Assembly: GCA_026397255.1 (NCBI GenBank)
Contig: JAPLVF010000013.1
Span: 9,481 to 73,480, forward strand
Length of the DNA: 64,000 nucleotides
From: Candidatus Beckwithbacteria bacterium
Lineage (GTDB): Bacteria > Patescibacteriota > Microgenomatia > UBA1400 > CG1-02-47-37
Reading direction: 5' to 3'
The position numbers were made by a program, and so were the translations under genes. The notes beneath the pieces were generated by a model. That model was not told the DNA's origin and ran no database searches. It saw only the letters and a list, made by a program, of their open reading frames with translations. The stretch's first letter is position 1. Each line of letters opens with the position of its first letter. This document shows, piece after piece, positions 13,738-37,643 of this stretch.

Positions 13738-13759
13738 GCTAGAGTTTAAACCAAAGTTG

Positions 13760-13815: not shown

Positions 13816-13841
13816 TAGTTACTAATTATTTTAATTTAATT

Positions 13842-15186: not shown

Positions 15187-15201
15187 GGGGTGAGCAACCT
15201 G

Positions 15202-15267: not shown

Positions 15268-15280
15268 TAGGACGGAAGCA

Positions 15281-15735: not shown

Positions 15736-15777
15736 TCTTGCGGCAGGCATTACTTAATTGTAACTCAAGTGCAGAAA

Positions 15778-15808
15778 TCAAGTTGTGTTAAGATAAGGAG
15801 TGTTGATG
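15778..15808 (+). repeat. partial copy A' of the epimerase upstream sequence
   Basis: ATCAAGTTGTGTTAAGATAAGGAGTGTTGATGAA versus ATCAGTTGTGTGATAAGATAAGTTTATGAA at 17971-18000. Confidence 0.5.
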
Positions 15809-15812
15809 AAGG

Positions 15813-16277: not shown

Positions 16278-16298
16278 AGATTTCGGGCAGACGGGGAA

Positions 16299-17090
16299 TT
16301 ATACCAGGTTGGGGAAGAGAAAGCCTTTGATATCTAAAAAGTCAATTTTTTTATCCTTGACAAAAATCCTGTCTTTACCACTGATATCAATTTGCCTGGG
16401 AACATAAATTAAGCCGTTAATTTCCCTTAAATCATCCGGTAATACTTGTTTCTTTCGGGAAAAAGCTGAAAGTTTATCGGTAAAATCCTTCAGCGGACTC
16501 ATCCTTTGTCGATGTAAAGCATAACTCGATTCTTTTGGTTTAACAAACAACTTTAAGATGCTTAATTTTGTTTGCTTATTTTGCTTCTCTACTAATGCCT
16601 CTAAGCGAGCTTGAGTATCATCCTTTTCCAACATTGGATTGGCGCCGCTTAAAATTAATAAACCTTCGTTATCCCCAATCACTGTTTTAACGCCGGTAAA
16701 AAATTTCCTTAATTTGAGAACGGCTTGTTTCATTGAATGAAATCTGCCTTCTCTAAATTCAATCGGCTGGTGAAGGCCAACAGCATTACCATGGTTATCT
16801 TTGGCCAACATCAGGGCGCAAAAACTGGCACCATGTATAAAAATTACGGCCGGATCTGTTTCAGTGGAAATAATATTCTCAGAATCTTTGATTTTTTCAA
16901 ATCCGGGCGTGGTTTCATAGACAGTCGGATCTGCCGAGCGAACCTTAAAGCCACTTTTAGGCAAAGATTGCTGTAAATTTTCCGGAGAGGCGTAAGCAAT
17001 TGTGGTATCAAATTTTTTTAGGACATCAAGTATAGGAGAAGGTTCAAGCGTTTGGGGTAAACCCCGGTTAATTTCAAAAAAATCCTGCAT
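16299..17090 (-). CDS. hypothetical protein (263 aa)
   Basis: First gene of the two-gene unit. No recognisable domain. Confidence 0.55.
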   Translation of the reverse strand: MQDFFEINRGLPQTLEPSPILDVLKKFDTTIAYASPENLQQSLPKSGFKVRSADPTVYETTPGFEKIKDSENIISTETDPAVIFIHGASFCALMLAKDNHGNAVGLHQPIEFREGRFHSMKQAVLKLRKFFTGVKTVIGDNEGLLILSGANPMLEKDDTQARLEALVEKQNKQTKLSILKLFVKPKESSYALHRQRMSPLKDFTDKLSAFSRKKQVLPDDLREINGLIYVPRQIDISGKDRIFVKDKKIDFLDIKGFLFPNLV

Positions 17091-17100
17091 ATTTATTATA

Positions 17101-17157
17101 TGATAAGATAAGTTTATGAAAAAAGCGATGGTGACGGGGAGCTCGGGGTTTATCTAA
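17101..17157 (+). pseudogene. duplicated epimerase promoter/5' end, copy B (MKKAMVTGSSGFI then stop)
   Basis: 53 nt almost identical to 17981-18033, then divergence and a TAA stop. Confidence 0.7.
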
Positions 17158-17243
17158 AGACACCTGATAGAAAGACTGAAAAAGGAAAAGTTTAAGAAAT
17201 TTGTCAATAGCCGCTTGACAACGTGCTATAATGAAATTACATA

Positions 17244-17311
17244 GACCCTGTTTCTGAATTGTCACCGTAAGGTGCGCGTTCTCAACTAACGTTGAGATAG
17301 GAACCAGGGTC
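17244..17311. other. structured RNA-like element (long closing stem with two internal hairpins, one with a GNRA loop)
   Basis: GACCCTGTTTCT pairs with AGGAACCAGGGTC, enclosing CACC-GTAA-GGTG and TCTCAAC-TAAC-GTTGAGA hairpins. Lies 3 nt beyond the DUF3800 stop on the minus strand. Confidence 0.3.
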
Positions 17312-17314
17312 GCT

Positions 17315-17938
17315 TTATTTAAACGGCCAAATATCTTCAATTCTTCTTGACCTTTTAAGCATAGTTAAATAATCAGAATCTTTTTTTGTAAAGTCAGAGA
17401 ACACTGCCCCAGCTACCATATCAGCCAGTTGAATCAGCGTGTTTTGTCTTGAATCCACAAACTTTAAATCTTTAAAGATTTTACTGTTCTTATTGTCTAA
17501 ACGCCTGGATAAATAAACTCTTAACTGATTCCTTAGGGTTCTCTCTCCTCTTTTATCAACTTTCAATTTTGCGTTTTTTATTGATCCGCCGCTTTGTTTC
17601 AAAACCTGCATGATTACATAGTTATAAAAATCTTCTTTATTGCTTCTTAATCTTTGGCTGCGAATTAATGCTTTGTTAACCATAATGGCTCTAACCCTAA
17701 ACTTAAATGATCTGATAGCGTTGAAAAAGGCTTTGCGAAATTTTCTGTTGGTTTTATTGAACTTAAATTCGTATTTATCTTGTAATTTCAGTTTTCTCCT
17801 TAGTTCTTTAATTGCCACCGAGGTCTTTTCTGCTTCCAGGTTGTCATTGAAAATAACTAAGGCCAACACAAAAATATCGCTTGAGCCTTTTTGGAGCTTA
17901 AAACCTGGATCTCCGGATTCGTCAATAAAAACTATCAT
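17315..17938 (-). CDS. DUF3800 family protein
   Basis: N-terminal MIVFIDESGDPGF matches the conserved iY/F-IDESG start remembered for DUF3800 proteins. Confidence 0.65.
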   Translation of the reverse strand: MIVFIDESGDPGFKLQKGSSDIFVLALVIFNDNLEAEKTSVAIKELRRKLKLQDKYEFKFNKTNRKFRKAFFNAIRSFKFRVRAIMVNKALIRSQRLRSNKEDFYNYVIMQVLKQSGGSIKNAKLKVDKRGERTLRNQLRVYLSRRLDNKNSKIFKDLKFVDSRQNTLIQLADMVAGAVFSDFTKKDSDYLTMLKRSRRIEDIWPFK

Positions 17939-22963: not shown

Positions 22964-23659
22964 TTAATCGTTGACTAAGCGATATTTGATAATCGTAAAC
23001 ACCAAGTCCAGGCCGTCGCGAAAACGGATTTTCTTTCCCTGAAGACGGGTGCGCGGGTGGAAACTCACGGGAACTTCAGCAATTTTAAAACCTAATTTTA
23101 AGGCTTTGACCGTAAACTCGGCGTCAAACTCAAACTGAACAGAACGGAGGTTAATTTTGGTTAAAACCTCTTTGGTAAAGGCTTTATAGGCAGTATTAAT
23201 ATCGCTGACCCAGTGGCCGAAAAGAAGCCCGGTTAAGGTGCTGGTAATCTTGGTCGCCAACCAACTTTTAAAAGGGATTTTGGTTTGGGAATTTAGAATT
23301 CTTGAACCGTAAACAATTTTGGCTTGGTTGCTAAGGATCGGCTCTAAAAGCAGGTGAAATTCCTGCGGATCAAGCTCCAGATCAGCATCCTGAATAATCA
23401 CAATGTCGCCGGTAGACTGTTTTAAACCTAAGCGGATAGCCGCCCCCTTACCTAAATTAATCGGCAGTGATAAAACTTTAAGGTTCGGAATTTTTTGAAG
23501 TTTGGCGTTGATTTGCTGACGGCTATCATCAGTGGAGCCATCATCAACCACAATAATTTCTTTGGTAATATTTTTAAGTTTTACCGCCCTAACTTTTTCA
23601 ATTAAAGCGGCAATTGTCGCCTGTTCGTTGTAAACCGGAATGATTACGGACAATTTCAT
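22964..23659 (-). CDS. GT2 polyprenol-phosphate sugar synthase (DPM1/GtrB/ArnC-like)
   Basis: MKLSVIIPVYNE...VDDGSTDDS...IQDADLE in a ~230 aa soluble GT2. Confidence 0.8.
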   Translation of the reverse strand: MKLSVIIPVYNEQATIAALIEKVRAVKLKNITKEIIVVDDGSTDDSRQQINAKLQKIPNLKVLSLPINLGKGAAIRLGLKQSTGDIVIIQDADLELDPQEFHLLLEPILSNQAKIVYGSRILNSQTKIPFKSWLATKITSTLTGLLFGHWVSDINTAYKAFTKEVLTKINLRSVQFEFDAEFTVKALKLGFKIAEVPVSFHPRTRLQGKKIRFRDGLDLVFTIIKYRLVND

Positions 23660-24741
23660 AACTGTTTACTTATTACAGACAAATAAACTTTCTTGGTTTC
23701 ATTGTAAATTTTTTGCCAAGTGTAGTGATTAGATAACTTTAAGGCTTCCAGTTGTTTTTGACGATAAAGTTCTTTGTCAGTTAAAAGACGTTCAATTTGC
23801 TTAGCCAAATCACTTTCGTTCCCCGGCTTAAAGAAAAGCGTCCCCTGGCCAAAATTGGTAATTTCCTGATTAACCGGAATACTGGCTAAAACGCAGGGTA
23901 GGCCGCAGGCCATGGCTTCAATCGTCGCCAAACCAAAGCCTTCCACAACCGACGGCAGGCAAAAAATCCGGGAGCGGGACAATGTATCAATTAGTTCATG
24001 ACGGGAGAGATAGTCAACAATTTTGGCTTTATCTGTTAAACGGAATTCCTGAATAAGTTTAAGTAAATGTTTCTTTTGCGGGCCGCGGCCGATGATCAAT
24101 AAACGTAACGGCAGATTATCCAATAAAGACATTGCCTTAATTAAAACATCAATCCGTTTGGTTTTAACCAAACGCGCCAGGCAAATAATTGTGGTTTTAG
24201 TAAACTTTTCCGGGGAAGAAGTGAAGCTAAACTCTTTCGGGTCAATGCCGCCGTGAACGACAACTAAATGATCAGTTTTAACTTTGGCTTTTAACAGCTT
24301 GGTTTTGGTGGAATCGCTTAGGGCAATCACCCCGTCCCAGGACAGTTTTAAATAAAGTTTTTCCATCAGCCAGCCGGTGATGCCGACAAACCAACCAAAA
24401 TCCAGCCAGTTTTTTCCTAAAACATCCGGCACCCAGATTATTACCGGCTTGGTTTTAAGCCGAGCCGCCAAAAACGCCGGCAAGTAAGTGACGACATTGG
24501 AAGCTTCGACTAAATCAAATTTGGTAAACAGGGCTTTAATTAAAGATCTAAATAAATAACCGGTCCGGCTGAACACGGATAAAGGCGTAGCCGGCACCTG
24601 CCGGGAAGAAGAAGCAATCACTTTAACTAAAAAATCTTTTTTAGCCTGTTTAATGATGTAGTATGCCCGGGCCTCAACTCCACCGGTAAATATCAATTCG
24701 TCGTTTTTAGGGAAAAACTCGGTTAAAAACAACAATTTCAT
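23656..24741 (-). CDS. glycosyltransferase family 4
   Basis: VVEGFGLATIEAMACGLPCVLA motif. Confidence 0.75.
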   Translation of the reverse strand: MKLLFLTEFFPKNDELIFTGGVEARAYYIIKQAKKDFLVKVIASSSRQVPATPLSVFSRTGYLFRSLIKALFTKFDLVEASNVVTYLPAFLAARLKTKPVIIWVPDVLGKNWLDFGWFVGITGWLMEKLYLKLSWDGVIALSDSTKTKLLKAKVKTDHLVVVHGGIDPKEFSFTSSPEKFTKTTIICLARLVKTKRIDVLIKAMSLLDNLPLRLLIIGRGPQKKHLLKLIQEFRLTDKAKIVDYLSRHELIDTLSRSRIFCLPSVVEGFGLATIEAMACGLPCVLASIPVNQEITNFGQGTLFFKPGNESDLAKQIERLLTDKELYRQKQLEALKLSNHYTWQKIYNETKKVYLSVISKQL

Positions 24742-25076
24742 TTCTTTTTTTCCTGATTCAAGGCAATCATCCGGACCAGTTTAGTCAAATCGTGGCGCAG
24801 GTTTTCCAGCAAAACATTAGTCCGAAAAATAAGATAAAACAGTAAAATAATGGAGGCATAAATAACGGCGTCACTGCCCCGGTTAATACCTAATTGCTTA
24901 GCAACAATCGAGGTTAATTCCGGTTCAAAGACGCCCAGTAAAGCCACAATAAACAAACCAAACCAAAAACTGCCGCTAGCTAAAGTTAAACTGCCGTCTT
25001 TTAATCTTAAGAAAACCCGGGAAGCGGCAAAAAGCAGAAAAACACTGAAAATAATCTGAACCGGCAAAAAGGACAT
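24738..25076 (-). CDS. DUF2304-like small membrane protein (GT2-associated)
   Basis: 112 aa, two hydrophobic helices, then RGSDAVIYASIILLFYLIFR and a charged tail. Sits directly upstream of a DPM1-like GT2, as is typical for DUF2304. Confidence 0.5.
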   Translation of the reverse strand: MSFLPVQIIFSVFLLFAASRVFLRLKDGSLTLASGSFWFGLFIVALLGVFEPELTSIVAKQLGINRGSDAVIYASIILLFYLIFRTNVLLENLRHDLTKLVRMIALNQEKKK

Positions 25077-25080
25077 AAGT

Positions 25081-25767
25081 TTACCTTAATAATCTTAGCA
25101 CCAGGCGGAACAAAATGGCAAATACATTACCGGGCTTGACGCCTTTACTCAATGAATAATCAGTATAAATAACTTTTATCGGCACTTCGGTAAATTTCAG
25201 CTGATGGTATTTGATTTCCCGGAAAAATTCGTTGCTGACTTCCATCCGTTCGGTCTTTAATTCAATTAATTGAATCGCTTTCTTATTAAAGCCGCGAAAC
25301 CCGGATAAAGAATCCGTAGTGCTAACGCCGAAAAAAACTTTGGTTAATAAATTAAAGGCCTGATTGTTAATTTTTCTTAAAAACGGCATTTTGCCGATTT
25401 GACTTAGAAGACGGCTGCCGATAACCACATCGGCCTGGTGATTCAGTAGTGGATTTAATAGTTTAATTAAATCAGCCGGGTCGTGCTGGCCGTCCGAATC
25501 CATGGTGATGGCAAAGTCCGCGTTAATTTTTTCGGCATAGTTAAGACCGGTGGCTAAAGACGCACCTAAACCCCGGTTAATCACGTGAGTTAAAACCGTG
25601 ACGCCGGCAGTCTTGGCGACTGGAGCGGTTTTATCGGTCGAACCATCATTAACCACGCAAATTTCTGATTCGAGCGGAAAGGCAACCACGGTTTTTTTCA
25701 CTTCCCGTAAAACCTGATCAAGAACCTTGGCTTCATTTAAGGCAGGCAGAATAATTAAAAGTTTCAT
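25081..25767 (-). CDS. GT2 polyprenol-phosphate sugar synthase (DPM1-like)
   Basis: LLIILPALNE...VNDGSTDKT...TMDSDGQHDP. Confidence 0.8.
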   Translation of the reverse strand: MKLLIILPALNEAKVLDQVLREVKKTVVAFPLESEICVVNDGSTDKTAPVAKTAGVTVLTHVINRGLGASLATGLNYAEKINADFAITMDSDGQHDPADLIKLLNPLLNHQADVVIGSRLLSQIGKMPFLRKINNQAFNLLTKVFFGVSTTDSLSGFRGFNKKAIQLIELKTERMEVSNEFFREIKYHQLKFTEVPIKVIYTDYSLSKGVKPGNVFAILFRLVLRLLR

Positions 25768-26645
25768 AAACTTAATAAACCATCGGCTAATTTTACTTTT
25801 GGCTGCCAGTGAAGATTTTTGACGGCTAAATGGTTTGCCAAAACACTCCGGACAATATCCCGGCCGCGGGCCGGAACCAATTTGGCTTTCAGCTTAGTTT
25901 TACCATTCCCGCATAACTTTAATAATTGATTAATGGTCGTTTCCTGACCGGTGCTGATATTAAAAATCCCCGATTGGGAAAACGATAAAGCCCGAATCAT
26001 GGCGGTAACGACATCGGATACATGAATAAAATCCCGTGTCTGTTGACCATTGCCGTAGATTAGCGGCGTGATCCCACGTTGAATTTGATTTAAGAAAATT
26101 GGGACAACCCCGCCTTCGGCCGAACTGTTCTGAAACGGACCGTAAACATTAGCCAAACGGAAAATCACTGTCGGGAAAAATTTTTTAAATTGACGGCAAT
26201 AAAGCTCACCGGTCAACTTAGATAAACCATAAAGAGAAATTGGTTTTAACGCGGAAGTTTCCTGAATCGGAAAGTTCCGGACTTCACCATAAACCGCGGC
26301 TGAAGAAGTAAATATTAATTGTTTGACTTGAGCGGCTTTGGCCGCCTCTAAAACATTATAGGTACCGATAATATTATTATGGATAATTTTGTCCAGCGTG
26401 CCGCTGACGCGGCTTTCCGCAGCCAAATGATAAATTACTGCCGGTTTAATTTTTTGAATCGTGTCAACCAGTTTTGAATCAGCAATATCCTGCCGGATGA
26501 CGCTAATAGAACCGGGCAAGCGGTTAGAGCTGGGAGAAGAAAAATTATCAATTACAAAAATTTGATAATTTAAATTAGTTAACTTTTTCACCAGATGAGA
26601 GCCGATAAACCCCAAACCGCCGGTGACGATAATTTTTCTGGTCAT
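25764..26645 (-). CDS. NAD-dependent epimerase/dehydratase (GalE-like)
   Basis: VTGGLGFIGSHLV and YGLSK motifs. Confidence 0.8.
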   Translation of the reverse strand: MTRKIIVTGGLGFIGSHLVKKLTNLNYQIFVIDNFSSPSSNRLPGSISVIRQDIADSKLVDTIQKIKPAVIYHLAAESRVSGTLDKIIHNNIIGTYNVLEAAKAAQVKQLIFTSSAAVYGEVRNFPIQETSALKPISLYGLSKLTGELYCRQFKKFFPTVIFRLANVYGPFQNSSAEGGVVPIFLNQIQRGITPLIYGNGQQTRDFIHVSDVVTAMIRALSFSQSGIFNISTGQETTINQLLKLCGNGKTKLKAKLVPARGRDIVRSVLANHLAVKNLHWQPKVKLADGLLSL

Positions 26646-27784
26646 GATATCCAGTACCCCCGGGAAAACCTAATAAACGCCCAGCTTAACAGCAGAACTG
26701 AGGCTATCAACCAAAGTATTTTCACTAATTTAGACTTAGTTGCCGCCACGAAATAAAACAAAGGGAAGGCGGTTAAGACATAACGCGGCATTGAGGCAAA
26801 ACTGCCGGTCAAAGTCGGCAGCAAATAGGCAGGAATAAGAAACAACAGATAACTTGTCCGGAATTTTTTCAATAAAGCAGAGATAATTAAAACCAGAAAA
26901 ATCAGGGAAATTAAAAATTCAAAAACCAGAACCGGGTAAATCTCATTTTGCGGACTGACCCCGAAAAACATTTTTAGGTAGCGAAAAATAACCTGATAAA
27001 TCATGACAAAAGTGTCTACCTGGCGGCCGGAACCAAAGCCCGGCTGCGCCGTGACAAAAATTAAGAAATTATGGAAACGGTGCTGTAAATAAGCCAAGTA
27101 CAAAAGTAAGCCGGAAGCGCTTAAAAAAGAGATTTTGAATAATGCCAGGAGATGATTTTTTTTATTTACCTGATAATACTCCCACAAAATCAGCGGCAGC
27201 AAAAAAATGCCGACCAAGCGGGTAGCCGAGGCCAGACCGGCAATTATGGCGGCAGGGATAAACCGCCGGGTCCGGGCTGAATAAAGGCAAAGAGCGACTA
27301 AAAAAAGGAACAAAGATTCAGTATAGACGCTGAAAAAGAAAAAGCTGGCCGGAAACAATAGCAATAGTAACAACGACCAACGGAGAGTTTTGACGGAATA
27401 ATCCAAGCGGCCCAGCTTAATAAAATAATAAATAAAACCAATCAGGCTTAAATGGGAAATAATCAGGCCGGAAAGCAAGTGGTTATGGGTAAGCAGGCTT
27501 AAAAATTTAATTAAATTTGGGTAGAGCGGAAAAAAGACCTGGGTTAAACCATAAAGATAACCTTCCTGGGCAATACTAAGGTAATGGACGCCGTCAAAAT
27601 TACCCCACAACCACAGCCAATCCGGCCCCTTGGGCTGCAAAAAAAGGTCCCAGTAAGGAAAACTACCCTTAAAGGGAACAAATTTTATCGCCAAACCGGC
27701 CACTAATTGTAAAAACAGACGGACGATTAAGGCTAAACCTAAAGCCTGGACAAATAATTTATTGTTGGTTAAGAATTTTTTCAT
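26642..27784 (-). CDS. polytopic membrane protein, candidate GT-C glycosyltransferase
   Basis: About 10 predicted TM helices. FDGVHYLSIAQEGY loop motif with conserved acidic/aromatic residues. Confidence 0.5.
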   Translation of the reverse strand: MKKFLTNNKLFVQALGLALIVRLFLQLVAGLAIKFVPFKGSFPYWDLFLQPKGPDWLWLWGNFDGVHYLSIAQEGYLYGLTQVFFPLYPNLIKFLSLLTHNHLLSGLIISHLSLIGFIYYFIKLGRLDYSVKTLRWSLLLLLLFPASFFFFSVYTESLFLFLVALCLYSARTRRFIPAAIIAGLASATRLVGIFLLPLILWEYYQVNKKNHLLALFKISFLSASGLLLYLAYLQHRFHNFLIFVTAQPGFGSGRQVDTFVMIYQVIFRYLKMFFGVSPQNEIYPVLVFEFLISLIFLVLIISALLKKFRTSYLLFLIPAYLLPTLTGSFASMPRYVLTAFPLFYFVAATKSKLVKILWLIASVLLLSWAFIRFSRGYWIS

Positions 27785-28784
27785 AAACTTTTAAGGTGGC
27801 GTGAGCAGTTGCAGCCCAAGAGAATTTAGCTGATTGAGTTAATCCTAACTGACGGTATTTTTCCCGTAAAGCGGAGTTTAGCCAAAAATTATTTAAGGCT
27901 TCGGCTAATTCAGATGGATTGGCAGGATTAATTAAAATTGCCGCCGAACCGCTGATCTCCGCCAAAGATGTGTCTTTAGAAGTAATTACCGGACAACCAC
28001 AGGCCATGGCTTCCAAAACCGGCAGGCCAAAGCCTTCGGCCAAACTGGGCTGACAATAAACTGTGGCTAAATTATAAACTGACACTAACTCATCTGTTTT
28101 AACAAAACCCAGGGTAATAATCTTATGGGGATTGGCTTTGGCTAATTCCTGAAATCTTACCAAGGCTTGGTTTTCCGGGTGATGCTTAGCAAAATCATGA
28201 CTGACAGCCTGTTGGCCGACTACCACTAAGGGAAAATTTAATTTAAGGCAAGTTTTGGCTAAAAATGGTAAATTTTTATTGAAATTAACATCACCAACAT
28301 AAAGAATAAATTTTCCCGGCAACCCAAAATTGTTGCTTGGTTTTATCGGCTTAAAAACCGGGTCGGGAGCTAAATAAACCACATTAACTTTGTCAGCGGA
28401 AATGCCGGTAAATTTGACAATGTCTTTTTTAGAAATTTGAGAGTCAGTGACAATTGCCGAGGCTGATCGTAATTGATTTTTTTGGATTAACCATCTGAGC
28501 TTGCCTTTAATTCCCGGTGGGAACTGGTCTGGAAATTTTAAGGGAGTTAAGTCATGAACCGTAATGACATAAGGGAAACGATTAATCAAAGGCAGGCTGA
28601 AATGGAAGGGATTAAAGCCCGGATAATGAACTAAATCAGCCAGCGAAGGCGCCTTTTTCTCAAATTTAATTAATTGAAGTGAAGGGATTTTTTCCAGTCC
28701 GGCGATTAAACGACGGGTATAAAAACCAATGCCCCGGAAGGAACTGGCAGAATTAAAACAACTGATATCAATGCCGATTTTCAT
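27759..28784 (-). CDS. glycosyltransferase family 4
   Basis: SLAEGFGLPVLEAMACGCPVITS motif. Confidence 0.8.
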   Translation of the reverse strand: MKIGIDISCFNSASSFRGIGFYTRRLIAGLEKIPSLQLIKFEKKAPSLADLVHYPGFNPFHFSLPLINRFPYVITVHDLTPLKFPDQFPPGIKGKLRWLIQKNQLRSASAIVTDSQISKKDIVKFTGISADKVNVVYLAPDPVFKPIKPSNNFGLPGKFILYVGDVNFNKNLPFLAKTCLKLNFPLVVVGQQAVSHDFAKHHPENQALVRFQELAKANPHKIITLGFVKTDELVSVYNLATVYCQPSLAEGFGLPVLEAMACGCPVITSKDTSLAEISGSAAILINPANPSELAEALNNFWLNSALREKYRQLGLTQSAKFSWAATAHATLKVYEKILNQQ

Positions 28785-29601
28785 GATTAAGCTCCCAAAA
28801 TTTAAGATAAATTACCGGAAAACGCAAAGCCGACATTAAAGAAAAAATAAAACCGGGCAGGCCATCGACAAAACCTTTATGGCGAAAGTAGGTAGAAAAA
28901 AACCAAACCTTAGGTTTAATAATAAAATACTGAAAACACAGCCAAAGGCTTGGTTTAAAATTCTCTTGTTTAAGTTTAGCGGCAGCCAAAGAGGTGTAGC
29001 GATTAAAGCGGGTGAGATAACGACTAAAATGGCGGTCAGAGTAATGAATGATAGGATTGGTAAGATAACCGACCGGACCGTCAATGATAATCTGCTCATG
29101 AACAGTTTCACAGGGAAAACTCCCCTTACCGTTAAGAAAAAGACGGATAATATAATCAGGATATTGGCCGCCTTTAGTTAAAAACCTGGTCAGAAAAAAA
29201 TTTTTTCTGGGAAGATAATAGCCATTAAATTGAGGGTGTGGTTGGTTGATTATTTTTTTAATTTCCCGAGCCAATTCCGGACTGACTCTTTCATCGGCAT
29301 CCAGCTGTAAAATCCATTTACCGCTAGCTTTATCCACTGCCAACTGTTTATTAATATGAAAAATCGGCTTATTGGTCACCTGAAAAACTTTGGCGGAAAA
29401 AGTTTTAGCAATCTCTCTGGTTTTATCCTGTGAACTACCGTCAACAATAATAATTTCGTCAGCTAAAGTTTTAACTGATAATAAGCAGTCTTTAATATTA
29501 GCCGCCTCGTTATAGGTGGCTAAAACTACACTAAGCGATATTTGCATAATAAGTAAAACGCCTGCAGGCCGTCTACCCAGGTAATTTTTTTTCCTTCGCA
29601 A
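28768..29601 (-). CDS. glycosyltransferase family 2
   Basis: LSVVLATYNEAANI...VDGSSQDKT...LQLDADE. Confidence 0.75.
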   Translation of the reverse strand: MRRKKNYLGRRPAGVLLIMQISLSVVLATYNEAANIKDCLLSVKTLADEIIIVDGSSQDKTREIAKTFSAKVFQVTNKPIFHINKQLAVDKASGKWILQLDADERVSPELAREIKKIINQPHPQFNGYYLPRKNFFLTRFLTKGGQYPDYIIRLFLNGKGSFPCETVHEQIIIDGPVGYLTNPIIHYSDRHFSRYLTRFNRYTSLAAAKLKQENFKPSLWLCFQYFIIKPKVWFFSTYFRHKGFVDGLPGFIFSLMSALRFPVIYLKFWELNHENRH

Positions 29602-30197
29602 AATTCGCGGCCGGAATAAGAAATCGGCACTTCGTAAATTCGGATTCCCTGTTTTAAAATTTTACTGGTAACTTCCGGCTCAAAACCGAAACGGTTCTCT
29701 TTCAAATCCAGGGAAAGTAATAGTTTTTTAGGAAACAATTTATAGCCGACTTCCATGTCAGAAATAGTGGTGTTGTAAAAAAGATTTGTCAGAAAAGATA
29801 AAAATCTGTTTCCGGCTAAGTGCCAAAAAAGCATATTCCGATGCGGCCCCAAAAACCTAGAGCCATAAACAACTGCCGCCTGGTTATTTAAAACCGGGGT
29901 AAGTAATAACTTAATATCCTCCGGATCATATTCCAAGTCCGCATCCTGGATTAAGACATAGTCGCCGGTGACTTGTTTAAGGCCGGCCCGAATCGCTGCC
30001 CCTTTACCTTGATTTTTGGATAAATTAATCGTTTTAATTCCGGAAATTCCGGCAATAATTTTTTTGGTCGTATCAGTCGAACCATCGTTAACGACAATAA
30101 TTTCCGGGGAAATTTTGGTTAATTTCTTAACCTTAGTAATAATCTGACGAATTGTCCCGGCTTCGTTAAAACTGGGAATAATAACTGATAATTTCAT
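29526..30197 (-). CDS. GT2 polyprenol-phosphate sugar synthase (DPM1-like)
   Basis: MKLSVIIPSFNEAGTI...NDGSTDTT...IQDADLEYDP. Confidence 0.8.
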   Translation of the reverse strand: MKLSVIIPSFNEAGTIRQIITKVKKLTKISPEIIVVNDGSTDTTKKIIAGISGIKTINLSKNQGKGAAIRAGLKQVTGDYVLIQDADLEYDPEDIKLLLTPVLNNQAAVVYGSRFLGPHRNMLFWHLAGNRFLSFLTNLFYNTTISDMEVGYKLFPKKLLLSLDLKENRFGFEPEVTSKILKQGIRIYEVPISYSGREFCEGKKITWVDGLQAFYLLCKYRLV

Positions 30198-30730
30198 AGA
30201 CGCTGTAAATCGGGTTTAGTGGCCGAATATAACCACTGTTTGCCGTCACTGCCGGCAAACTGCATTTGTTGGGTGGAAGGATAATAAGCTTTAAAAATTA
30301 AGTCTGTCTGATGATTTAGCTTTAATCTGATAAGCTGGATTAATTCCCCGCGCCCGTCGATAACGTAAAAAGTCGGCTCCGGCGCTTTGTCCTGATAACC
30401 GATTAAGTTCTTGTCCGAGTCAAAAAACTGAAGGGTTAAATCAGACAACCGTCCGTTAGGATCAATTTCCACCCGGGCCGGAATGGTTTTGTCTTTTAAC
30501 TTAAACTGGCAAAAATCCCGGCAGTCAACCTTAATCAATAAAGGATCAATTGAGGCAAGCGGTGTTCCTAATTCCGACGCCTCATATTTTAAACTAGTAA
30601 AAGCGTGAACAAACCGGCTAAGACTAATCCGCCGGTAGCCAGAATCGACAAAAACCTGATAAAATACAAGCAGTAGAAGCCAAAGCAAGGAAAGACAAAG
30701 AAATAACCAATGGCCAACAAGTTTATTCAT
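30194..30730 (-). CDS. hypothetical membrane-anchored protein
   Basis: N-terminal TM helix then a soluble domain. No recognised motif. Confidence 0.45.
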   Translation of the reverse strand: MNKLVGHWLFLCLSLLWLLLLVFYQVFVDSGYRRISLSRFVHAFTSLKYEASELGTPLASIDPLLIKVDCRDFCQFKLKDKTIPARVEIDPNGRLSDLTLQFFDSDKNLIGYQDKAPEPTFYVIDGRGELIQLIRLKLNHQTDLIFKAYYPSTQQMQFAGSDGKQWLYSATKPDLQRL

Positions 30731-32086
30731 AAAATTATCCGATCCAAGAGAATTATATCATTAATTATCGTTTGGGCCCTGATAATTTTAGGGGTAACTT
30801 TAAGGGGATTTAAGGCCGATATTTATCCAACCGATAACAACGACGACGGCTTGTTTTATGCTTGGGCCGGAATTTCTTTCTGGGATAACCCACTTAGACC
30901 GATCACCCATTCAATTTTTGACAATAACAATCCGGCGCTTGTCTGGCGGTCACAATTTAGAGATTTTATTCCGTTAGAAAGATTTGGTCTGAAGCTGGTT
31001 GAGCCTTGGCTGGACCATCCGCCGTTAGGCGCGGCAATTATCGGCCTGCCGGCCCGATTATTGGGCTACCGGGGCTTTGAACCGATTCCCCAGATGATTG
31101 TCCGCTTGCCGGCCTTAATTGCCAGCATCTTTACTTTATTTTTAACTTATCTTTTAGGGAAAAAACTATTCGGGGAAAAAGTCGGACGATTGTCATTATT
31201 ATTTCTCGCTACCGTTCCTTATTATGTCATCAGTCAGCGGCAATCCTTCTTAGAAAATATTTTAACGCCGGTGGTTTTAGCCGCCTTAATTTTCTTACAC
31301 GAAAGCAAACTATTACCAGCGCTAATTTTGGCCTTCTTTTGCGGCTGGATTAAAGTGCCGGGTTTTGCCGTCCCTCTGATGATCGCTGTCTGGCTACTGC
31401 AGAAAAAACAACTAAAAGCGGCGATGGCTTTTGTCGGAACAGGAATTTTATCCGTAGTCACTTATCTTATTTACGGTTTTGCGGCCGACAGAAATGCGTT
31501 TTTATTTATTTTGACCAATCAAGCTGACCGAGGCGCTTTTGTTAATTCAGTCTTTGATGCAATTACTAAGCCTCATTTTTACGGCGGGTTTAACGACGGC
31601 TGGTATGTTTTAGGCTTTATCTTCAGTTTTTTAATGCTGACAAAATTTAAAAAAGAATCTTTTAAGTTTTTTAATTGGTTTTTAAGTATGTGGCTGTTGC
31701 TGCTTTTTTTAATTGCCGGCCGCTATAATAATTCGCCCTGGTACTGGTTTCCTTTGATTCCTTTTTTCTCCATTTCCTTAGGTTATTTTGCTAATCTTCT
31801 CTTAAAAAAACACCATTTGTTTTTGGTTTTACCTTTTTGGCTCTTAGGTTTAACCGGTTTTGATTTGTTAAAAATTAACCTCAACCCGAATTATTTGCGT
31901 TTGGCAACGATATTTTTCTTTATTCCATTTGGACTGAATTTAAAAAAAATTACTGTTTGGCTGACGCGATTATTGCTAATTGCTTTGGTTTGCCTAAATA
32001 TTTATGTAATCTTACGTTACCCGACGATTCACTGCCGGGAAGAAGAGTGCCTGGCGCCGACAAAAATAATTCTAAATTATGAATAA
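30710..32086 (+). CDS. polytopic membrane protein, candidate GT-C
   Basis: 458 aa with multiple TM helices. First loop contains DNNDDGLFYAWAG, an acidic cluster. Confidence 0.5.
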   Translation: MANKFIHKIIRSKRIISLIIVWALIILGVTLRGFKADIYPTDNNDDGLFYAWAGISFWDNPLRPITHSIFDNNNPALVWRSQFRDFIPLERFGLKLVEPWLDHPPLGAAIIGLPARLLGYRGFEPIPQMIVRLPALIASIFTLFLTYLLGKKLFGEKVGRLSLLFLATVPYYVISQRQSFLENILTPVVLAALIFLHESKLLPALILAFFCGWIKVPGFAVPLMIAVWLLQKKQLKAAMAFVGTGILSVVTYLIYGFAADRNAFLFILTNQADRGAFVNSVFDAITKPHFYGGFNDGWYVLGFIFSFLMLTKFKKESFKFFNWFLSMWLLLLFLIAGRYNNSPWYWFPLIPFFSISLGYFANLLLKKHHLFLVLPFWLLGLTGFDLLKINLNPNYLRLATIFFFIPFGLNLKKITVWLTRLLLIALVCLNIYVILRYPTIHCREEECLAPTKIILNYE

Positions 32087-33557
32087 GCAAAGAATTTTTC
32101 ATTTGGTGGTTTTGGGAATAGTTATGCTGGTGTCTTTCCGGATTGCCCAAGCAAGAAGCCTATCAATGCATTTCGTGGATGAAGAAGATCATATGACGAT
32201 TGGTCGACTGACCAACAGAGGATTCAAACTTTACCAGGATATCCAGTCAAACCATCAACCGATTGTCTATTTTACTTCGGCTAAACTGCAACAATTACTT
32301 AATCCGCCGAATATTTTTATGCTGGTCCGCCGCCACCGGCAGGCAATGTTTGTTTACGGAGCAATCTGGAGTTTACTGATTGTCTGGCGTTTTAAAACCG
32401 TCGGTTTAATTTTCGTAATCTTTTTTGAATTTTTAAAGTATTATCTCTTCGGCAATCTTTGGTTAATGGAGGCGTTTGCCGCATATCCGGCAGTGTATTT
32501 ATTCGGAACAATGCTGCAGGTTTGGTTTAAAAATCAAAATATTAAAAAATCCGAACTTGTCTTTTTAGGCATATGTTCGTTTTTAGTTTTGTTTAATTTG
32601 GTGCCTTTGTGGCCATGCTTAGCTTTTATGTGGCTGCTCTTTTTATTAAAAATTAAAAAGAAAATTTTTTGGATGGTAGCGGCATTATTAACATCAACGC
32701 TAATTTTTTTCACACTGTCCCGGTATTCCGTCGCTGATTGGTTTATCAGAACAGTCTATAACAACTTTGTTTATGCCGTCCCGACCATGTCACCATTGCA
32801 TGGACCCGGTGACTGGTTAAAAATGATTTTTTTCCCGTTTTTGGCCTACTTTACCCCCAACTCTTTGCAGGCGCAATTTATTAGTTTATTTTTCAGCGTC
32901 TATCTGTTGGCCGTGGTCTTTAAACGAAAATTGTTAATAATTTACCCCTTACTGCTTCTGGCTAATAACCGGGTACTATCGCCCGGCACGGTTTATTATG
33001 AAGGTTTTCATTTACTCCCCTGGCTGGGATTAATGATTTTTACTTTCAGTTTCTGCTTAAAAACAATTAAATTTAAATTTTGGCCGGTTTGGTTAATTTG
33101 GGCGATGATTTTACTGACTAATAAAAACATGGCCTATTTTTGGAAAACTGACCCAAATTATGAATACTATGTAAATTATTCCACTTTTGACGATTTAAAT
33201 TTTGCCATAAAAATAATCAACCAGGAAGGCCAAAAAATGGCGGTTTCTGTTTTAACTAATGAGGTTTTAGTCCAATGGAAAACTTTAACCAGCCCAGCGA
33301 CTAAACAAGTGGTTAGTTACGCCTGGGAGCGGAAAATTCCGGCATTAAAAGAAGAGTATAGTCGGGTTTTTAATATCAATAATCCTAATCCGCCGGAATT
33401 TATTTACGGCGAAATGGAACGTGAGTTAGTTCAAGCTAAATACCATTCTCTTTCCCGGGACGGAAAATCGACGGGATTATTTATCAGAAAAGATATTTAT
33501 GGAAAAATTACTCCTGAGCAATGGGAAGCGTTAGCGACCAGAAGATTTAGTCGCTGA
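32079..33557 (+). CDS. polytopic membrane protein with C-terminal soluble domain
   Basis: 492 aa, about 12 TM helices then a ~120 aa hydrophilic tail. Confidence 0.5.
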   Translation: MNKQRIFHLVVLGIVMLVSFRIAQARSLSMHFVDEEDHMTIGRLTNRGFKLYQDIQSNHQPIVYFTSAKLQQLLNPPNIFMLVRRHRQAMFVYGAIWSLLIVWRFKTVGLIFVIFFEFLKYYLFGNLWLMEAFAAYPAVYLFGTMLQVWFKNQNIKKSELVFLGICSFLVLFNLVPLWPCLAFMWLLFLLKIKKKIFWMVAALLTSTLIFFTLSRYSVADWFIRTVYNNFVYAVPTMSPLHGPGDWLKMIFFPFLAYFTPNSLQAQFISLFFSVYLLAVVFKRKLLIIYPLLLLANNRVLSPGTVYYEGFHLLPWLGLMIFTFSFCLKTIKFKFWPVWLIWAMILLTNKNMAYFWKTDPNYEYYVNYSTFDDLNFAIKIINQEGQKMAVSVLTNEVLVQWKTLTSPATKQVVSYAWERKIPALKEEYSRVFNINNPNPPEFIYGEMERELVQAKYHSLSRDGKSTGLFIRKDIYGKITPEQWEALATRRFSR

Positions 33558-34905
33558 TGGTGACATTGGCAAACTGATAGGCATTAGTCAGGCCGGCGGT
33601 ATCCGGAGGAGTCCAGAGTGCAGTCTGCTGAAATAAGACCGGATCAATCTTTAAATATATTAACGGGTAAAGATAGGTAGAATCATGAACTCCGGATAAA
33701 TTTATTGGCTCAGAATCTTCAGAATTTTTAGTTAATTTTAATAAATTTTCTTTTAAGCCAATCGGCAGACTGGAGGTAACTTTAACAGGATAAACTTGGA
33801 GATATTGATAGCCGGCATAAGCAACATTAATAAAATAGATTACAGCAATTATGGGTAAGAATTTTTTAATTTTAGTTAGTCCGACAGAAGCTAAAATTAA
33901 GATAATCGGCAATAAAAATAATGCCCGGGTGGAATGAGGCGCATCAATCGTTATTGCCGAGGTTAGGGGGGCTAACAGCAACCAGCTGATAAATAATAAT
34001 TTAGGCTTGGTTAATTTAAGCAAGCCGATAACCGCTAAAATAATTTCGATGGCGTAGAAATTGCCCACTCCGGGAATTTGATGCCACGGATGATTGTCTC
34101 CTTTAAAAATTAAAAATTGAGGGGAAAAAGTGTTTAAATAATTCCTGGCAGTTATTTTACCGAAATAAATATATTTATTGAAAAATAATTTGGTTTTCAG
34201 AGGATTTTGTTGATATTGAATTGTCCGCTCGCGATTATAGGTGTCGATTAAATAAGGATCGGAAAAAACCGTAATTGCCTGCTTTTGCTGGGAAACCCGC
34301 CAGATACCGGCAAAAACTCCTAGGAAACAACAAATAAACAAAACAGAGGCAATTATTCCCGGACGGTAACGCCAAAAGAAAACCAGGGAAAACAAGGGGA
34401 TAAAAATTAATGCCGAAGAATAAGCCAGACAGGCTAACAGCCAAAAGAAAAAGCCAAGGGTTTTTTTCTTTAATAACAGCCAAAGACCGACGAGAAATAA
34501 GGCCAAAGCTAAGTTTGCCTCAAAAGCAATCCGGGAATAAAAAACTGCCCAGGGATTTAATGCCAAAAAGAAACTGGCCCATATATTTTTTGAGATAAAG
34601 TAAATAGCGATAACACTAATTACTCCGGAAAGAGCTGACCAGAAACGGATGGAAAAATCATTAAGGCCGAAAAGTTTAACCGGTAAAACCGTGGCATAGA
34701 TATATAAAGGCATTTTATAATCACCGATAGATTTAAAAGCTAGCGGCCAAGAGACACCATGTTCGTCTTTCCCGGTTTTTAAAATCGAGTAGGCATTATA
34801 ACCAATGGCGGCTTCATCACGGTTTAATGCCGGCGGCAAACTATCCAAGCCGGCAAACCGGATTAAGGCAGCCATTAAAACTATTACTAAAAAGAATTTA
34901 GACAA
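33547..34905 (-). CDS. PMT/ArnT-like GT-C glycosyltransferase (GT39/GT83-like, PMT_2)
   Basis: First-loop motif NRDEAAIGYNAYSILKTGKDEHGVSWPLAFKSIGDYKMPLYIY. A DE dyad in loop 1 as in PMT/ArnT families. Confidence 0.65.
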   Translation of the reverse strand: MSKFFLVIVLMAALIRFAGLDSLPPALNRDEAAIGYNAYSILKTGKDEHGVSWPLAFKSIGDYKMPLYIYATVLPVKLFGLNDFSIRFWSALSGVISVIAIYFISKNIWASFFLALNPWAVFYSRIAFEANLALALFLVGLWLLLKKKTLGFFFWLLACLAYSSALIFIPLFSLVFFWRYRPGIIASVLFICCFLGVFAGIWRVSQQKQAITVFSDPYLIDTYNRERTIQYQQNPLKTKLFFNKYIYFGKITARNYLNTFSPQFLIFKGDNHPWHQIPGVGNFYAIEIILAVIGLLKLTKPKLLFISWLLLAPLTSAITIDAPHSTRALFLLPIILILASVGLTKIKKFLPIIAVIYFINVAYAGYQYLQVYPVKVTSSLPIGLKENLLKLTKNSEDSEPINLSGVHDSTYLYPLIYLKIDPVLFQQTALWTPPDTAGLTNAYQFANVTISD

Positions 34906-36209
34906 ATAGCCTCCTGAGGACAGACTGACGGCAGATAATAATAAAATTTTTGATTGGCTGGGAATAAACTTAAATCATTTAAATAGAAAGCAAAATATAA
35001 TTCCGGCTGGTATAACCGATTGCTAATATAAACCGGCTGAACCGGCAGTCTGTCTTTAAATTGCAGGGCTGCTTGTTTATACGGCAAAATCCAGGCAGCG
35101 GCTGACCGACCGGGATAATGAATAAAATAGTCATGTAAATAAAAAGATAAATTTAAAATTAAAGCCAGGCTAAAAATAATGCTAATAATGGTCTTAAACC
35201 GGCTCCAGCCTAAGCCAATCAGCCAGGCTAAAGGAATCATCAGATAAATTGCCCGGGAAGCATGCGGAGTTTCGTTTACTAAGGCGGCGATTGTCGGGCT
35301 TAATAATAACCAAGCCAATATCAGCCAAACTTCTTTCCGACGGTAATTTAATAAAGCCACGAGGCCGCTGACCAATAAAATTCCCTGTACCAGTAGCAGT
35401 TCACCGCCAAAGCCGGAATGATGGCGAAGATTGGGGTCGCCGCTGACTAATAAGAACTGCGGATCAAAATAAGATGAGTAATTAAGCAGAAATTTTTTAA
35501 TTCTTTCCGGCTTTCTTTCAGTTGAAGTAATTAAATTATCATTGGAAAGACGGTACTGCTGACTGGCCGCATAATAAGGCGATTTAATTAAAATAATCAG
35601 GCTGACAATAATTAAGAGCAAGCCTAAAAAAAACTGTGTTAATTTAGTCCGGCTGTAAAGCAAAAAAGCCAAGACAAACAAAACCGGGGCTAAAATTCTC
35701 AAACTAAAATAGGTGTAAATGCCTAAAATAACGGCAAGGCTGGATAAAAATACCCTTTTTTTGATAATTAAATAAACGGCTAAGACTAACCAAAATAAAG
35801 ACAGGTGCGATTCCATGCCGATGCGGCTGAAATGAATGCTCCAGGGCATAATTAAAAAGCTCACCGCTACATATGGACCAAGCCATTTAAATAACAGCCA
35901 GGCGATTCCCAATGAGGCTAATAGCGACGGCAGTCGGATGGTTAACTCGGAAATATTAATGACTTTACCCAAAATCGTTACCAGCCAAATATAAACCGGG
36001 GCCTTGTAGTCGCCGTAAGAAATAAAAATCGGCTGAAGCCAGGAATGACCGTTAAGGTCTTTACCTGTTTGCAACAACGAACGGGCATCTAAGCCAATGG
36101 CAACTTCATCCCAATAAAGGCTGACAGGAATTTTCCCAAACTGATAAAAACGGGCAAACAATCCCAGAAGCCCTAATCCAAATAAAAGAACTAACAGACC
36201 TTTTTTCAT
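34887..36209 (-). CDS. PMT/ArnT-like GT-C glycosyltransferase
   Basis: WDEVAIGLDARSLLQTGKDLNGHSWLQPIFISYGDYKAPVYIW is the paralogous motif. Confidence 0.65.
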   Translation of the reverse strand: MKKGLLVLLFGLGLLGLFARFYQFGKIPVSLYWDEVAIGLDARSLLQTGKDLNGHSWLQPIFISYGDYKAPVYIWLVTILGKVINISELTIRLPSLLASLGIAWLLFKWLGPYVAVSFLIMPWSIHFSRIGMESHLSLFWLVLAVYLIIKKRVFLSSLAVILGIYTYFSLRILAPVLFVLAFLLYSRTKLTQFFLGLLLIIVSLIILIKSPYYAASQQYRLSNDNLITSTERKPERIKKFLLNYSSYFDPQFLLVSGDPNLRHHSGFGGELLLVQGILLVSGLVALLNYRRKEVWLILAWLLLSPTIAALVNETPHASRAIYLMIPLAWLIGLGWSRFKTIISIIFSLALILNLSFYLHDYFIHYPGRSAAAWILPYKQAALQFKDRLPVQPVYISNRLYQPELYFAFYLNDLSLFPANQKFYYYLPSVCPQEAICLNSF

Positions 36210-36227
36210 TTATACTATTATTATAGT

Positions 36228-37643
36228 ATGTTAATATTTTTATTGCTTTTTGCTTTGGCGACCCGCCTGCCTCACATTTGGGGCTATAACATCCCTTTTA
36301 GTTATGACCACGGCCGGGATGCCTTGGCGGTTTTAGATTTGATAAAAAACTTTTCTTTAAAATTCATCGGGCCGTGGACCAGCATTCAGGGGGTCTTTTT
36401 CGGACCGGGCTGGTATTATTTGCTGGCTCCGCTGTATTGGCTGCTAAACGGGAATCCTTTAGCCGGACCGCTGACCATGCAGATAATCGGCCTAGTAATT
36501 ATTTGGCTGGCTTATAAACAATTCGGCATTTATGAAGCGGTTATTTTCGCCTCGGCGCCGATTTTTACCATGATCAGCGTCAGCGCTGCCAATCCTTTTC
36601 CAATGGCTTTAATCGGACTACTGATACTTATTTGCTTAAAAACCCCCAGCCGGCACCCAATAAGTTTAGGCTTATTAGTCGGTTTAGGCTTTCATTTTTC
36701 TTCAGCCTTGGCAATTTTTTATTTACTGATAATTCCGTTAATTTTATTATTCAGAAAAATTAAGTTAAATCTAATAAAATTAATGATCGGGTTGATTATT
36801 CCTTTTATCCCGCAAATACTGTTTGAAATTAAATATAATTTTTTAGAAGTTAGGTCACTAATCAGTTATTTTGCCGCCGGGGAAAGCCAGCATATTAATC
36901 CGGGGAAAATAGAAATTGTGACTAAGTCTGTTTTCCATGAATTAAGTCTGGCAGTGTTACCGGATGGCAGTTGGTTAAAATATTTAGCTTTGGGATTACT
37001 GATAACCGGAATAGTTTATTTAATTGCCAAAAGAAAAATTAATACTTTCTGGCCGGATATTGTTTTATTTATTTTAATTCCCACCATTGGTTTTTGGTGG
37101 CTTCATTACAATGTCTGGTATGTCTACGGTTTGTTACCGGTGGCGGTCGTGGCTATCGGCCGGATTTTACACTCAGTACCAAAAATTATTACTTATAGTT
37201 ATTTAGGGTTGTTAATTATCGGCGGTGTTAAAATTCCTGTGCGTCAAATCGGGAATGGCTTTTTACCGATTAAGCTTCAGGTTTTAAATTACATCTATGA
37301 TCAGGCTCAAGGTAAATTGTTCAGTTCCTACCAGTACTTACCCAATATTTACGACTATCCTTACCAGTATTTGTATTTCTGGCAGGCATTTAAGGGCAAA
37401 CCCTTACCGGTGGAATTTGCTTATAAGCCGGGAGAGATAAGTTATGTGAGCGAAAAGCCAAAATTACTAAAATTATTTCCTAAAAATAATCAACCACCTG
37501 ATATTATTTTTTTGATAATCGAAAGGCCGGAAAATATCTGGCACTACCCATTCCAATCATGGCTTAATAACATTAAATATTCAGAAATTATCAGTAAAAA
37601 AGAGTTCGGCCCGGAACTGGAAGTTTGGCAGGTAAAGCCCTGA
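36228..37643 (+). CDS. polytopic membrane protein, ArnT-like DxGR loop motif
   Basis: YDHGRDALAVLDL...GPWTSIQGVFFGPGWYY. Paralog of the 48831-50333 gene. Confidence 0.5.
   Translation: MLIFLLLFALATRLPHIWGYNIPFSYDHGRDALAVLDLIKNFSLKFIGPWTSIQGVFFGPGWYYLLAPLYWLLNGNPLAGPLTMQIIGLVIIWLAYKQFGIYEAVIFASAPIFTMISVSAANPFPMALIGLLILICLKTPSRHPISLGLLVGLGFHFSSALAIFYLLIIPLILLFRKIKLNLIKLMIGLIIPFIPQILFEIKYNFLEVRSLISYFAAGESQHINPGKIEIVTKSVFHELSLAVLPDGSWLKYLALGLLITGIVYLIAKRKINTFWPDIVLFILIPTIGFWWLHYNVWYVYGLLPVAVVAIGRILHSVPKIITYSYLGLLIIGGVKIPVRQIGNGFLPIKLQVLNYIYDQAQGKLFSSYQYLPNIYDYPYQYLYFWQAFKGKPLPVEFAYKPGEISYVSEKPKLLKLFPKNNQPPDIIFLIIERPENIWHYPFQSWLNNIKYSEIISKKEFGPELEVWQVKP

Follow-up and report, generated by a model that had tools for sequence, protein, structure and literature searches.

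Five divergent putative polyprenyl-phosphate sugar synthases in a probable surface-glycosylation island of a Candidatus Beckwithbacteria genome

The 64,000 nt (64 kb) stretch of Candidatus Beckwithbacteria DNA analyzed here, hereafter the window, carries five genes for family-2 glycosyltransferases (GT2), designated GT2_A to GT2_E (A to E), which probably encode polyprenyl-monophosphate sugar synthases with a GT-A fold and a DXD motif. All coordinates are window positions, and L-numbers denote related and metagenome loci. Our preferred explanation, to which we assign a probability of about 0.72, is that these five synthases load probably different sugars onto polyprenyl phosphate and thereby feed the GT-C enzymes encoded in the same island. 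Judged by their sequences, the five genes represent at least four subfamilies that sit in different gene contexts. The enzymes are of already known kinds, found here in a bacterium of the Candidate Phyla Radiation (CPR), and do not constitute a new system.

Results

Synthase genes and their relation to known enzymes

All five synthase-like genes, together with a small gene for a DUF2304 protein, lie on the minus strand, with open reading frames (ORFs) exactly at the following positions.

22964-23659, minus strand: GT2_A, 231 aa, PF00535 (Glycos_transf_2) 3.3e-33; putative polyprenyl-phosphate sugar synthase
24738-25076, minus strand: DUF2304 protein, 112 aa, 3 predicted transmembrane segments, PF10066 7.7e-19
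25081-25767, minus strand: GT2_B, 228 aa, PF00535 3e-26; putative polyprenyl-phosphate N-acetylhexosamine (HexNAc) synthase (GacI/PpgS/AglK-like)
29526-30197, minus strand: GT2_C, 223 aa, PF00535 5.6e-35; putative polyprenyl-phosphate sugar synthase
50338-51081, minus strand: GT2_D, 247 aa, PF00535 1.7e-26; polyprenol-phosphate mannose synthase (DPM1/Ppm1-like) family
63820-63999, minus strand: GT2_E, C-terminal 59 codons, stop at 63820-63822, cut by the window end (frame check)

An earlier note on this DNA had reported four complete synthase-like genes and one partial gene, as well as a DUF2304 protein within a 7-kb span, and both statements are borne out by the ORF coordinates, the PF00535 matches of A to D, the frame check of E and the PF10066 match of the small protein. 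Its label "DPM1-like" holds insofar as all copies resemble polyprenyl-phosphate sugar synthases, but in the strict sense it fits D alone.

The best solved-structure match of A, B, C, D and an E ortholog was in every case the Pyrococcus furiosus dolichyl-phosphate mannose synthase (PfDPMS; 5mlz), aligned across the whole catalytic domain, with E-values of 4.9e-23 for D (residues 8-241), 1.6e-18 for A (residues 1-209), 3.3e-17 for the E ortholog, 1.3e-15 for C and 6e-13 for B. The next matches in the Protein Data Bank (PDB) were ArnC for all of them and GtrB for A, B, C and the E ortholog; D gave no GtrB match at E<=0.001. D was distinct, reaching 85 bits against DPMS vs 30 bits against ArnC, and A, C and E were about equally distant from DPMS, ArnC and GtrB. 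An AlphaFold model of C (pLDDT 86.9, pTM 0.86) was consistent with this placement, as its 22 best PDB matches in Foldseek were all ArnC, GtrB or DPMS structures, with a TM-score of ~0.8.

In the structure of PfDPMS, R117, R131 and S135 bind the lipid phosphate, with R117 serving as a ligand of both the phosphate of dolichyl phosphate and the mannose O6 (PMC5526996). When the window proteins were aligned with 200 homologs and read in PfDPMS numbering, E12, the DXD motif (DAD in A, C and D; DSD in B) and R117 were present in all of A to D, and the corresponding DXD region of the E orthologs read DFD. Besides E12 and R117, D retains D39, DADFSH (H94), R131, S135, R202 and K208; its substitutions Q93S and K178A affect two positions that are changed in all bacterial homologs examined. 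B keeps R131 and has N at the S135 position, and A and C keep the equivalents of R202 and K208. The alignment across the catalytic domain to polyprenyl-phosphate glycosyltransferases, including the lipid-phosphate-binding Arg (R117), thus argues for the lipid-phosphate-sugar synthase function that the earlier note had proposed.

Divergence among the five copies

Protein identity between the copies was 48% for A and C and 25-35% for every other pair, and pairwise comparison revealed no meaningful DNA similarity. Recent duplication of the copies was therefore rejected; near-identical recent duplicates, which the earlier note had named as the finding that would speak against donor diversity, are not what the window contains. 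The motifs of the DXD region also differ, reading DADFSH in D, DSDGQH in B, DADLEL in A, DADLEY in C and DFDQAT in the E orthologs. The assignment to subfamilies was based on NCBIfam scores, PDB scores and database names, the last being automated annotations. In outline, this split and the differing sugar-nucleotide gene contexts support the earlier proposal that several different lipid-linked sugars would be made.

GT2_B, its DUF2304 neighbor and an epimerase

The DUF2304 gene begins 4 nt past the stop codon of GT2_B, and its product scores 68.4 bits against PF10066, well above the cut-off of 25.5. The genes flanking this pair upstream are as follows.

25764-26645, minus strand: NAD-dependent sugar 4-epimerase/dehydratase, PF01370 1.1e-56, best NCBIfam match GalE at 148.5 bits
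26642-27784, minus strand: GT-C-like protein of PIG-V/Mannosyl_trans2 type, PF04188 8.9e-05 (at threshold), 8 predicted transmembrane segments, ortholog in L087

Both the adjacency of B and the DUF2304 gene and the position of the epimerase immediately upstream of B are kept in two related loci, L087 and L088. The best NCBIfam match of B was PpgS, a polyprenyl-phospho-N-acetylgalactosamine (GalNAc) synthase, which aligned end to end at 143.7 bits; as the equivalog cut-off is 370 bits, B is to be regarded as a relative of PpgS rather than a PpgS equivalog. Several B homologs are named UDP-GlcNAc--dolichyl-phosphate GlcNAc-transferase (EC 2.4.1.153-type; GlcNAc, N-acetylglucosamine) by JGI. By analogy with these enzymes, B is a putative HexNAc-phosphate-lipid synthase, and the GalE-like epimerase upstream suggests a 4-epimerized donor such as UDP-GalNAc.

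The DUF2304 protein is predicted, again by analogy, to be a partner and activator of B in the manner of GacJ and Rv3632. GacJ is a DUF2304 protein of 113 aa with 3 transmembrane segments that co-purifies with GacI, lowers the Km of GacI for undecaprenyl phosphate (Und-P) from 18.7 to 1.1 µM and raises its Vmax more than 100-fold; the GlcNAc is then transferred by the GT-C enzyme GacL (bioRxiv 10.1101/180810). Similarly, PpgS (Rv3631) is stimulated by Rv3632 (bioRxiv 10.1101/180810; PMC3485146). The arrangement in the window resembles GacI/GacJ/GacL of Streptococcus pyogenes and PpgS/Rv3632/Rv3779 of Mycobacterium tuberculosis in having an anchorless GT2 of ~230 aa followed by a DUF2304 protein of ~112 aa with three transmembrane segments, and a GT-C enzyme in the cluster. 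It differs from them in that its candidate GT-C protein is PIG-V-like, not GacL- or Rv3779-like, and in that the host is a CPR bacterium.

The operon of GT2_A, GT2_B and GT2_C

The B/DUF2304 pair lies in an operon with the order small transmembrane protein, C, another GT2, GT4, PIG-V-like GT-C, epimerase, B, DUF2304, GT4, A, GT4. This operon recurs in L087 without A and in L088 with A and one extra GT-C gene. In L087 (14478-16518), one GT4 gene directly follows the other where A is missing from the otherwise syntenic operon; because A is absent there and present in L088, it is best described as an accessory member of the cluster. The 120 best database matches of C were 67-86% identical and included genomes labelled Parcubacteria, by which measure conservation of the C family across Patescibacteria is high. 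Its immediate neighbors are the following.

28768-29601, minus strand: other GT2, PF00535 7.6e-19 over the N-terminal half only, best NCBIfam match TIGR04283/SunS-like
30194-30730, minus strand: protein of 178 aa, a single transmembrane segment at the N-terminal end, without Pfam family, 4-nt overlap with the GT2_C start

The GT2 at 28768-29601 is of a different type, neither DPM1 nor GtrB, and follows C in L087 and L088 as well. Its listed TTG start at 29601 would give a 76-nt overlap with GT2_C, and the in-frame ATG at 29547 (MQISLSVVLATYNE...) is the likely start. Counterparts of the 178 aa protein (170 and 193 aa) are found directly upstream of GT2_C in L087 and L088, and by its position alone this protein could be a membrane partner of C.

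GT2_D and the heptose genes

NCBI and JGI annotate D homologs as polyprenol monophosphomannose synthase or dolichyl-phosphate mannosyltransferase. With DPMS (5mlz), domain D2 of Ppm1 (MSMEG3859) and human DPM1, D shares the guanine-binding Asp, DADxxH, R117/R131/S135, R202 and K208. On these sequence grounds, a polyprenyl-phosphate mannose synthase is the most probable identity of D, and GDP-mannose would be its donor. Unlike Ppm1, which has a membrane partner (domain D1 or Ppm2), D has none evident beside it; like domain D2, it has no anchor of its own. The gene is part of a putative GDP-heptose operon, a context not described for DPM or polyprenol monophosphomannose (PPM) synthases, and its neighbors are as follows.

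48831-50333, minus strand: PMT_2-type GT-C membrane glycosyltransferase, PF13231 2.3e-13, immediately downstream of GT2_D
51062-51781, minus strand: sugar-1-phosphate nucleotidyltransferase, PF00483 2.2e-34, 20-nt overlap with the GT2_D start
51778-53394, minus strand: HddA-GmhB fusion, 538 aa, HddA 229.6 bits over residues 3-333 and GmhB 141.5 bits over residues 357-536
53391-53996, minus strand: GmhA, PF13580 8.7e-20, NCBIfam phosphoheptose isomerase 168 bits and gmhA 163 bits

Here, GmhA denotes sedoheptulose 7-phosphate isomerase, HddA D-glycero-D-manno-heptose 7-phosphate kinase and GmhB heptose bisphosphate phosphatase. For the protein at 53391-53996 and the two halves of that at 51778-53394, the best NCBIfam families (GmhA, HddA and GmhB) are those of the GDP-D-glycero-alpha-D-manno-heptose pathway (GmhA, HddA, GmhB, HddC), from which the window differs by its HddA-GmhB fusion, and the scores fall below the curated cut-offs (GmhA 163 vs 209, HddA 230 vs 600, GmhB 141.5 vs 178). 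The nucleotidyltransferase, the sole tblastn match of its kind within the window, scored 135 bits as a mannose-1-phosphate guanylyltransferase and 83 bits as HddC, for which the cut-off is 300.

The order GmhA, HddA, GmhB, nucleotidyltransferase, D was kept in all eight Beckwithbacteria-clade loci that include upstream DNA (L001-L005 and L007-L009; D 66-78% identical). Directly after D, L003-L005 carry a PMT/PMT_2 gene annotated by Pfam; in L001 and L002, such a gene lies a few kb farther downstream. The gene order was absent from a Kaiserbacteria locus whose D homolog is 51% identical, and heptose genes were absent from 72 of the 76 more distant D-homolog loci. The association of an HddA-type gene with a PPM-synthase-like GT2 nevertheless recurs independently in a Dehalococcoidia locus (L019, 2271-7625), which carries HddA (272 bits), GmhA, GmhB, a D homolog and a GT-C protein of 804 aa with no nucleotidyltransferase between them, and in a Micrarchaeota locus (L079, 6201-8696), which carries a nucleotidyltransferase, HddA (241 bits) and a D homolog.

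HddA and GmhB are fused in the window, L001 and L002 and are encoded by separate genes in L003 (4693-6316) and L005 (4756-6307). Five of the seven related genomes possess an additional HddC-like nucleotidyltransferase gene upstream of GmhA, full length in L003 and L007 and of ~195 aa in L005, L008 and L009; this gene is missing from the window, L001 and L002, and its absence coincides with the HddA-GmhB fusion. The nucleotidyltransferase beside D scored 135-161 bits as mannose-1-phosphate guanylyltransferase vs 80-98 bits as HddC across the window and its relatives, and in the genomes with the extra HddC-like gene, it looks like a separate mannose-type module. The records behind L007 and L009 (CAYICL010000004.1 and CAZYUF010000012.1) are titled "uncultured Pseudomonadales"; they contain the Beckwithbacteria-type heptose/GT2_D operon at 67-78% protein identity and are probably taxonomically mislabelled.

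Orthologs of GT2_E

Scanning metagenomes with the 59-residue fragment of E retrieved full-length orthologs of 240-252 aa (L089, L090, L092 and L095) that were 73-88% identical over the fragment. They have no specific NCBIfam match, and one of them is named dolichyl-phosphate beta-glucosyltransferase in UniRef. The orthologs carry an HDTQCGFK motif, in which DTQCGFK is a presumed motif of ALG5, the dolichyl-phosphate glucose synthase; a literature search on it found nothing. Judging from its orthologs, E is probably a glucose-type synthase, an assignment that we treat as a lead only.

GT-C membrane proteins and flippases

The earlier note had counted about 18 GT-C-like membrane proteins. Eighteen polytopic membrane ORFs are indeed present in the window and 13 of them can be tied to GT-C families by Pfam or paralogy, but neither route gives a GT-C assignment for the other 5. 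GT-C-type Pfam matches were obtained for 11 of the 18 (PMT_2/PMT in six, and DUF2079, YfhO, PTPS_related, Mannosyl_trans2 and EpsG), some being weak or below the cut-off: the PTPS_related match is weak, Mannosyl_trans2 lies at the threshold and EpsG below it. Two further ORFs (34887-36209 and 36228-37643) join the GT-C set via paralogy. Beyond the two proteins already described next to B and D, the membrane proteins and the flippase are distributed as follows.

30710-48850: array of 13 polytopic membrane proteins, mostly GT-C-like, including DUF2079 and YfhO members
58428-59885, minus strand: Wzx/MurJ-type (MOP) flippase, PF13440 9.2e-63, PF03023 3.5e-12, the sole flippase candidate in the window
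59866-63827, minus strand: three polytopic membrane proteins, one weakly PTPS_related, one PMT_2 and one without assignment

Five of the membrane proteins (starting at 33547, 34887, 41363, 44641 and 47294) form a paralog family with 28-37% identity and an acidic first-loop motif, e.g., (R/N/W)DE(A/V)A, and those at 36228 and 48831 form a second paralog pair. First loops containing DE or RD were seen in several of the 18. The D-adjacent GT-C protein had no ortholog in the related loci (tblastn, 1e-8), and the GT-C complement therefore appears to turn over or diversify rapidly.

Other features of the window

The region at 8789-17938, which is unrelated to glycosylation, splits the island. It encodes a VanW-like protein, a YkuD L,D-transpeptidase, a PolB-type 3'-5' exonuclease, an N6/N4 DNA methylase, an ImmA/IrrE peptidase with a helix-turn-helix (HTH) regulator, and DUF4417 and DUF3800 proteins, and its GC content drops as low as 0.34 at 12-14 kb. 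The region is a possible mobile or defence insert. Toward the left end of the window, a radical S-adenosylmethionine (SAM)/SPASM protein (2728-3792) is encoded among three GT4 genes and two methyltransferase genes and may modify a sugar or peptide substrate. No tRNA genes were found in the window.

Discussion

The evidence assembled here is best explained by A to E acting as cytoplasm-facing, anchorless GT2 enzymes that would each move one sugar from a nucleotide sugar to polyprenyl phosphate at the inner membrane face, in an inverting, metal-dependent reaction via the DXD motif. D would load mannose, or less likely manno-heptose, from a GDP-sugar made by the overlapping nucleotidyltransferase, whereas B would load a HexNAc (GlcNAc or GalNAc), with the DUF2304 protein binding and stimulating it as GacJ does for GacI and Rv3632 for PpgS. 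E would probably load glucose, and A and C a sugar that cannot be read from their sequences. The lipid-linked sugars would then be flipped across the membrane, and on the outer side the many GT-C transferases of the island would attach them to surface polymers or proteins.

Several observations weigh against this explanation. None of the copies reaches a curated NCBIfam equivalog cut-off, and the names given to homologs in databases are automated annotations. No transmembrane segment is predicted in A to D and, the positional suggestion for C aside, only B has a candidate membrane partner. A and C have no equivalents of R131 and S135, showing S/T and H/N instead. The model of C is matched next by the soluble glucosyl-3-phosphoglycerate synthase (GpgS) at a TM-score of ~0.78, almost as near as the lipid-dependent enzymes, so that a non-lipid acceptor is conceivable for A and C. 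In addition, no GtrA-type small flippase was found among the small ORFs of the window despite the five putative synthases. Short GT2s with these features, surrounded by GT4 genes in a region with a Wzx-like flippase and including a member, A, that is dispensable in L087, might suggest that some of them, A, C and E above all, are ordinary transferases of the cytoplasm, either lengthening a lipid-diphosphate-linked oligosaccharide or adding sugar to a soluble or protein acceptor, with the finished unit exported by the Wzx-type flippase. We consider this unlikely because the best full-length sequence and structure matches are only polyprenyl-phosphate transferases, because A and C possess R117 together with the acceptor-loop residues R202 and K208, and because the excess of GT-C enzymes requires lipid-monophosphate donors. 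Furthermore, proteins of 223-252 aa lacking an anchor resemble the proven enzymes GacI and PpgS and domain D2 of Ppm1, and human DPM1 is anchorless as well (bioRxiv 10.1101/180810; PMC3485146). A different objection accepts the lipid-linked products and holds that the copies are redundant, several of them supplying one and the same lipid-linked sugar to different GT-C partners, without donor diversity. The 48% identity of A and C would suit it, and the sugar specificity of A, C and E cannot be read from sequence. It is nonetheless very improbable given the 25-35% identity between subfamilies, their differing DXD-region motifs, and the differences in best family matches and adjacent sugar-nucleotide genes; in mycobacteria, moreover, Ppm1 is not replaceable by PpgS in vivo (PMC3485146).

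The heptose genes raise a question specific to D, namely whether the operon turns sedoheptulose 7-phosphate into GDP-D-glycero-alpha-D-manno-heptose, which D would load onto the lipid for transfer outside the cell by the adjacent GT-C enzyme. The gene order follows the pathway order with overlapping start and stop codons, it is maintained up to D in all eight clade loci, and heptose genes stand directly beside the D homologs of L019 and L079. The single nucleotidyltransferase of the window overlaps D, the HddC-like gene being shortened in some relatives and missing here, and a similar nucleotidyltransferase was seen in just 2 of the 76 distant D-homolog loci within the flanks examined. Against this stands the donor pocket, whose residues are the same in the heptose-linked D group and in 72 homologs without heptose genes; since these alignment columns are identical, they do not discriminate between mannose and heptose. 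In a neighbour-joining tree, the heptose-linked homologs do not form one exclusive clade, only the Beckwithbacteria clade being coherent. The separate HddC-like gene in five of the seven related genomes, alongside the better mannose-1-phosphate guanylyltransferase score of the enzyme next to D, weakens the case for heptose without removing it. Another outlet for GDP-heptose could be the cytoplasmic GT2 and GT4 enzymes encoded just upstream, and a literature search found no lipid-monophosphate heptose. We therefore regard a heptose-loading D as quite doubtful, and the wider proposal that D and its Beckwithbacteria orthologs, perhaps with the Dehalococcoidia and Micrarchaeota homologs beside HddA, make polyprenyl-phosphate D-glycero-D-manno-heptose from GDP-heptose is similarly improbable. 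If it were true, lipid-monophosphate heptose would be a donor class for GT-C enzymes of which our literature search found no report.

With mannose retained as the most probable substrate of D, the five genes can be compared with characterized systems. GtrB and ArnC, which transfer glucose and 4-deoxy-4-formamido-L-arabinose (Ara4FN), respectively, to Und-P, have the GT-A fold, the DXD motif and interface helices in common with A to E but differ in having two C-terminal transmembrane helices and forming tetramers, whereas A to E end right after the catalytic domain. PfDPMS carries four C-terminal transmembrane helices, in contrast to the anchorless D. The logic of a synthase feeding PMT/PMT_2-type GT-C enzymes is the same as in actinobacterial O-mannosylation by Ppm1 and Pmt and in the streptococcal system of PgfS and a GT-C enzyme acting on Ser/Thr-rich regions (PMC5982138, PMC12041528); the window differs from both in assembling ~18 GT-C-like genes and five synthases within one 64-kb stretch of a ~1-Mb genome. 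Literature searches for GT-C or DPM1-like expansions in CPR, Patescibacteria or Microgenomates returned nothing useful. At the level of a single module, the B/DUF2304 pair would extend the GacI/GacJ-type two-component synthase to the CPR, as its first example there.

CPR bacteria (Patescibacteria) have genomes of ~1 Mb and live attached to other cells. Despite this small genome size, most of the 64-kb stretch is devoted to surface glycosylation. If at least four lipid-linked sugars are indeed made and used by ~18 GT-C enzymes, the surface of these uncultivated episymbionts would be far more elaborately glycosylated than their reduced metabolism suggests, which would have a bearing on host recognition, phage resistance and envelope architecture.

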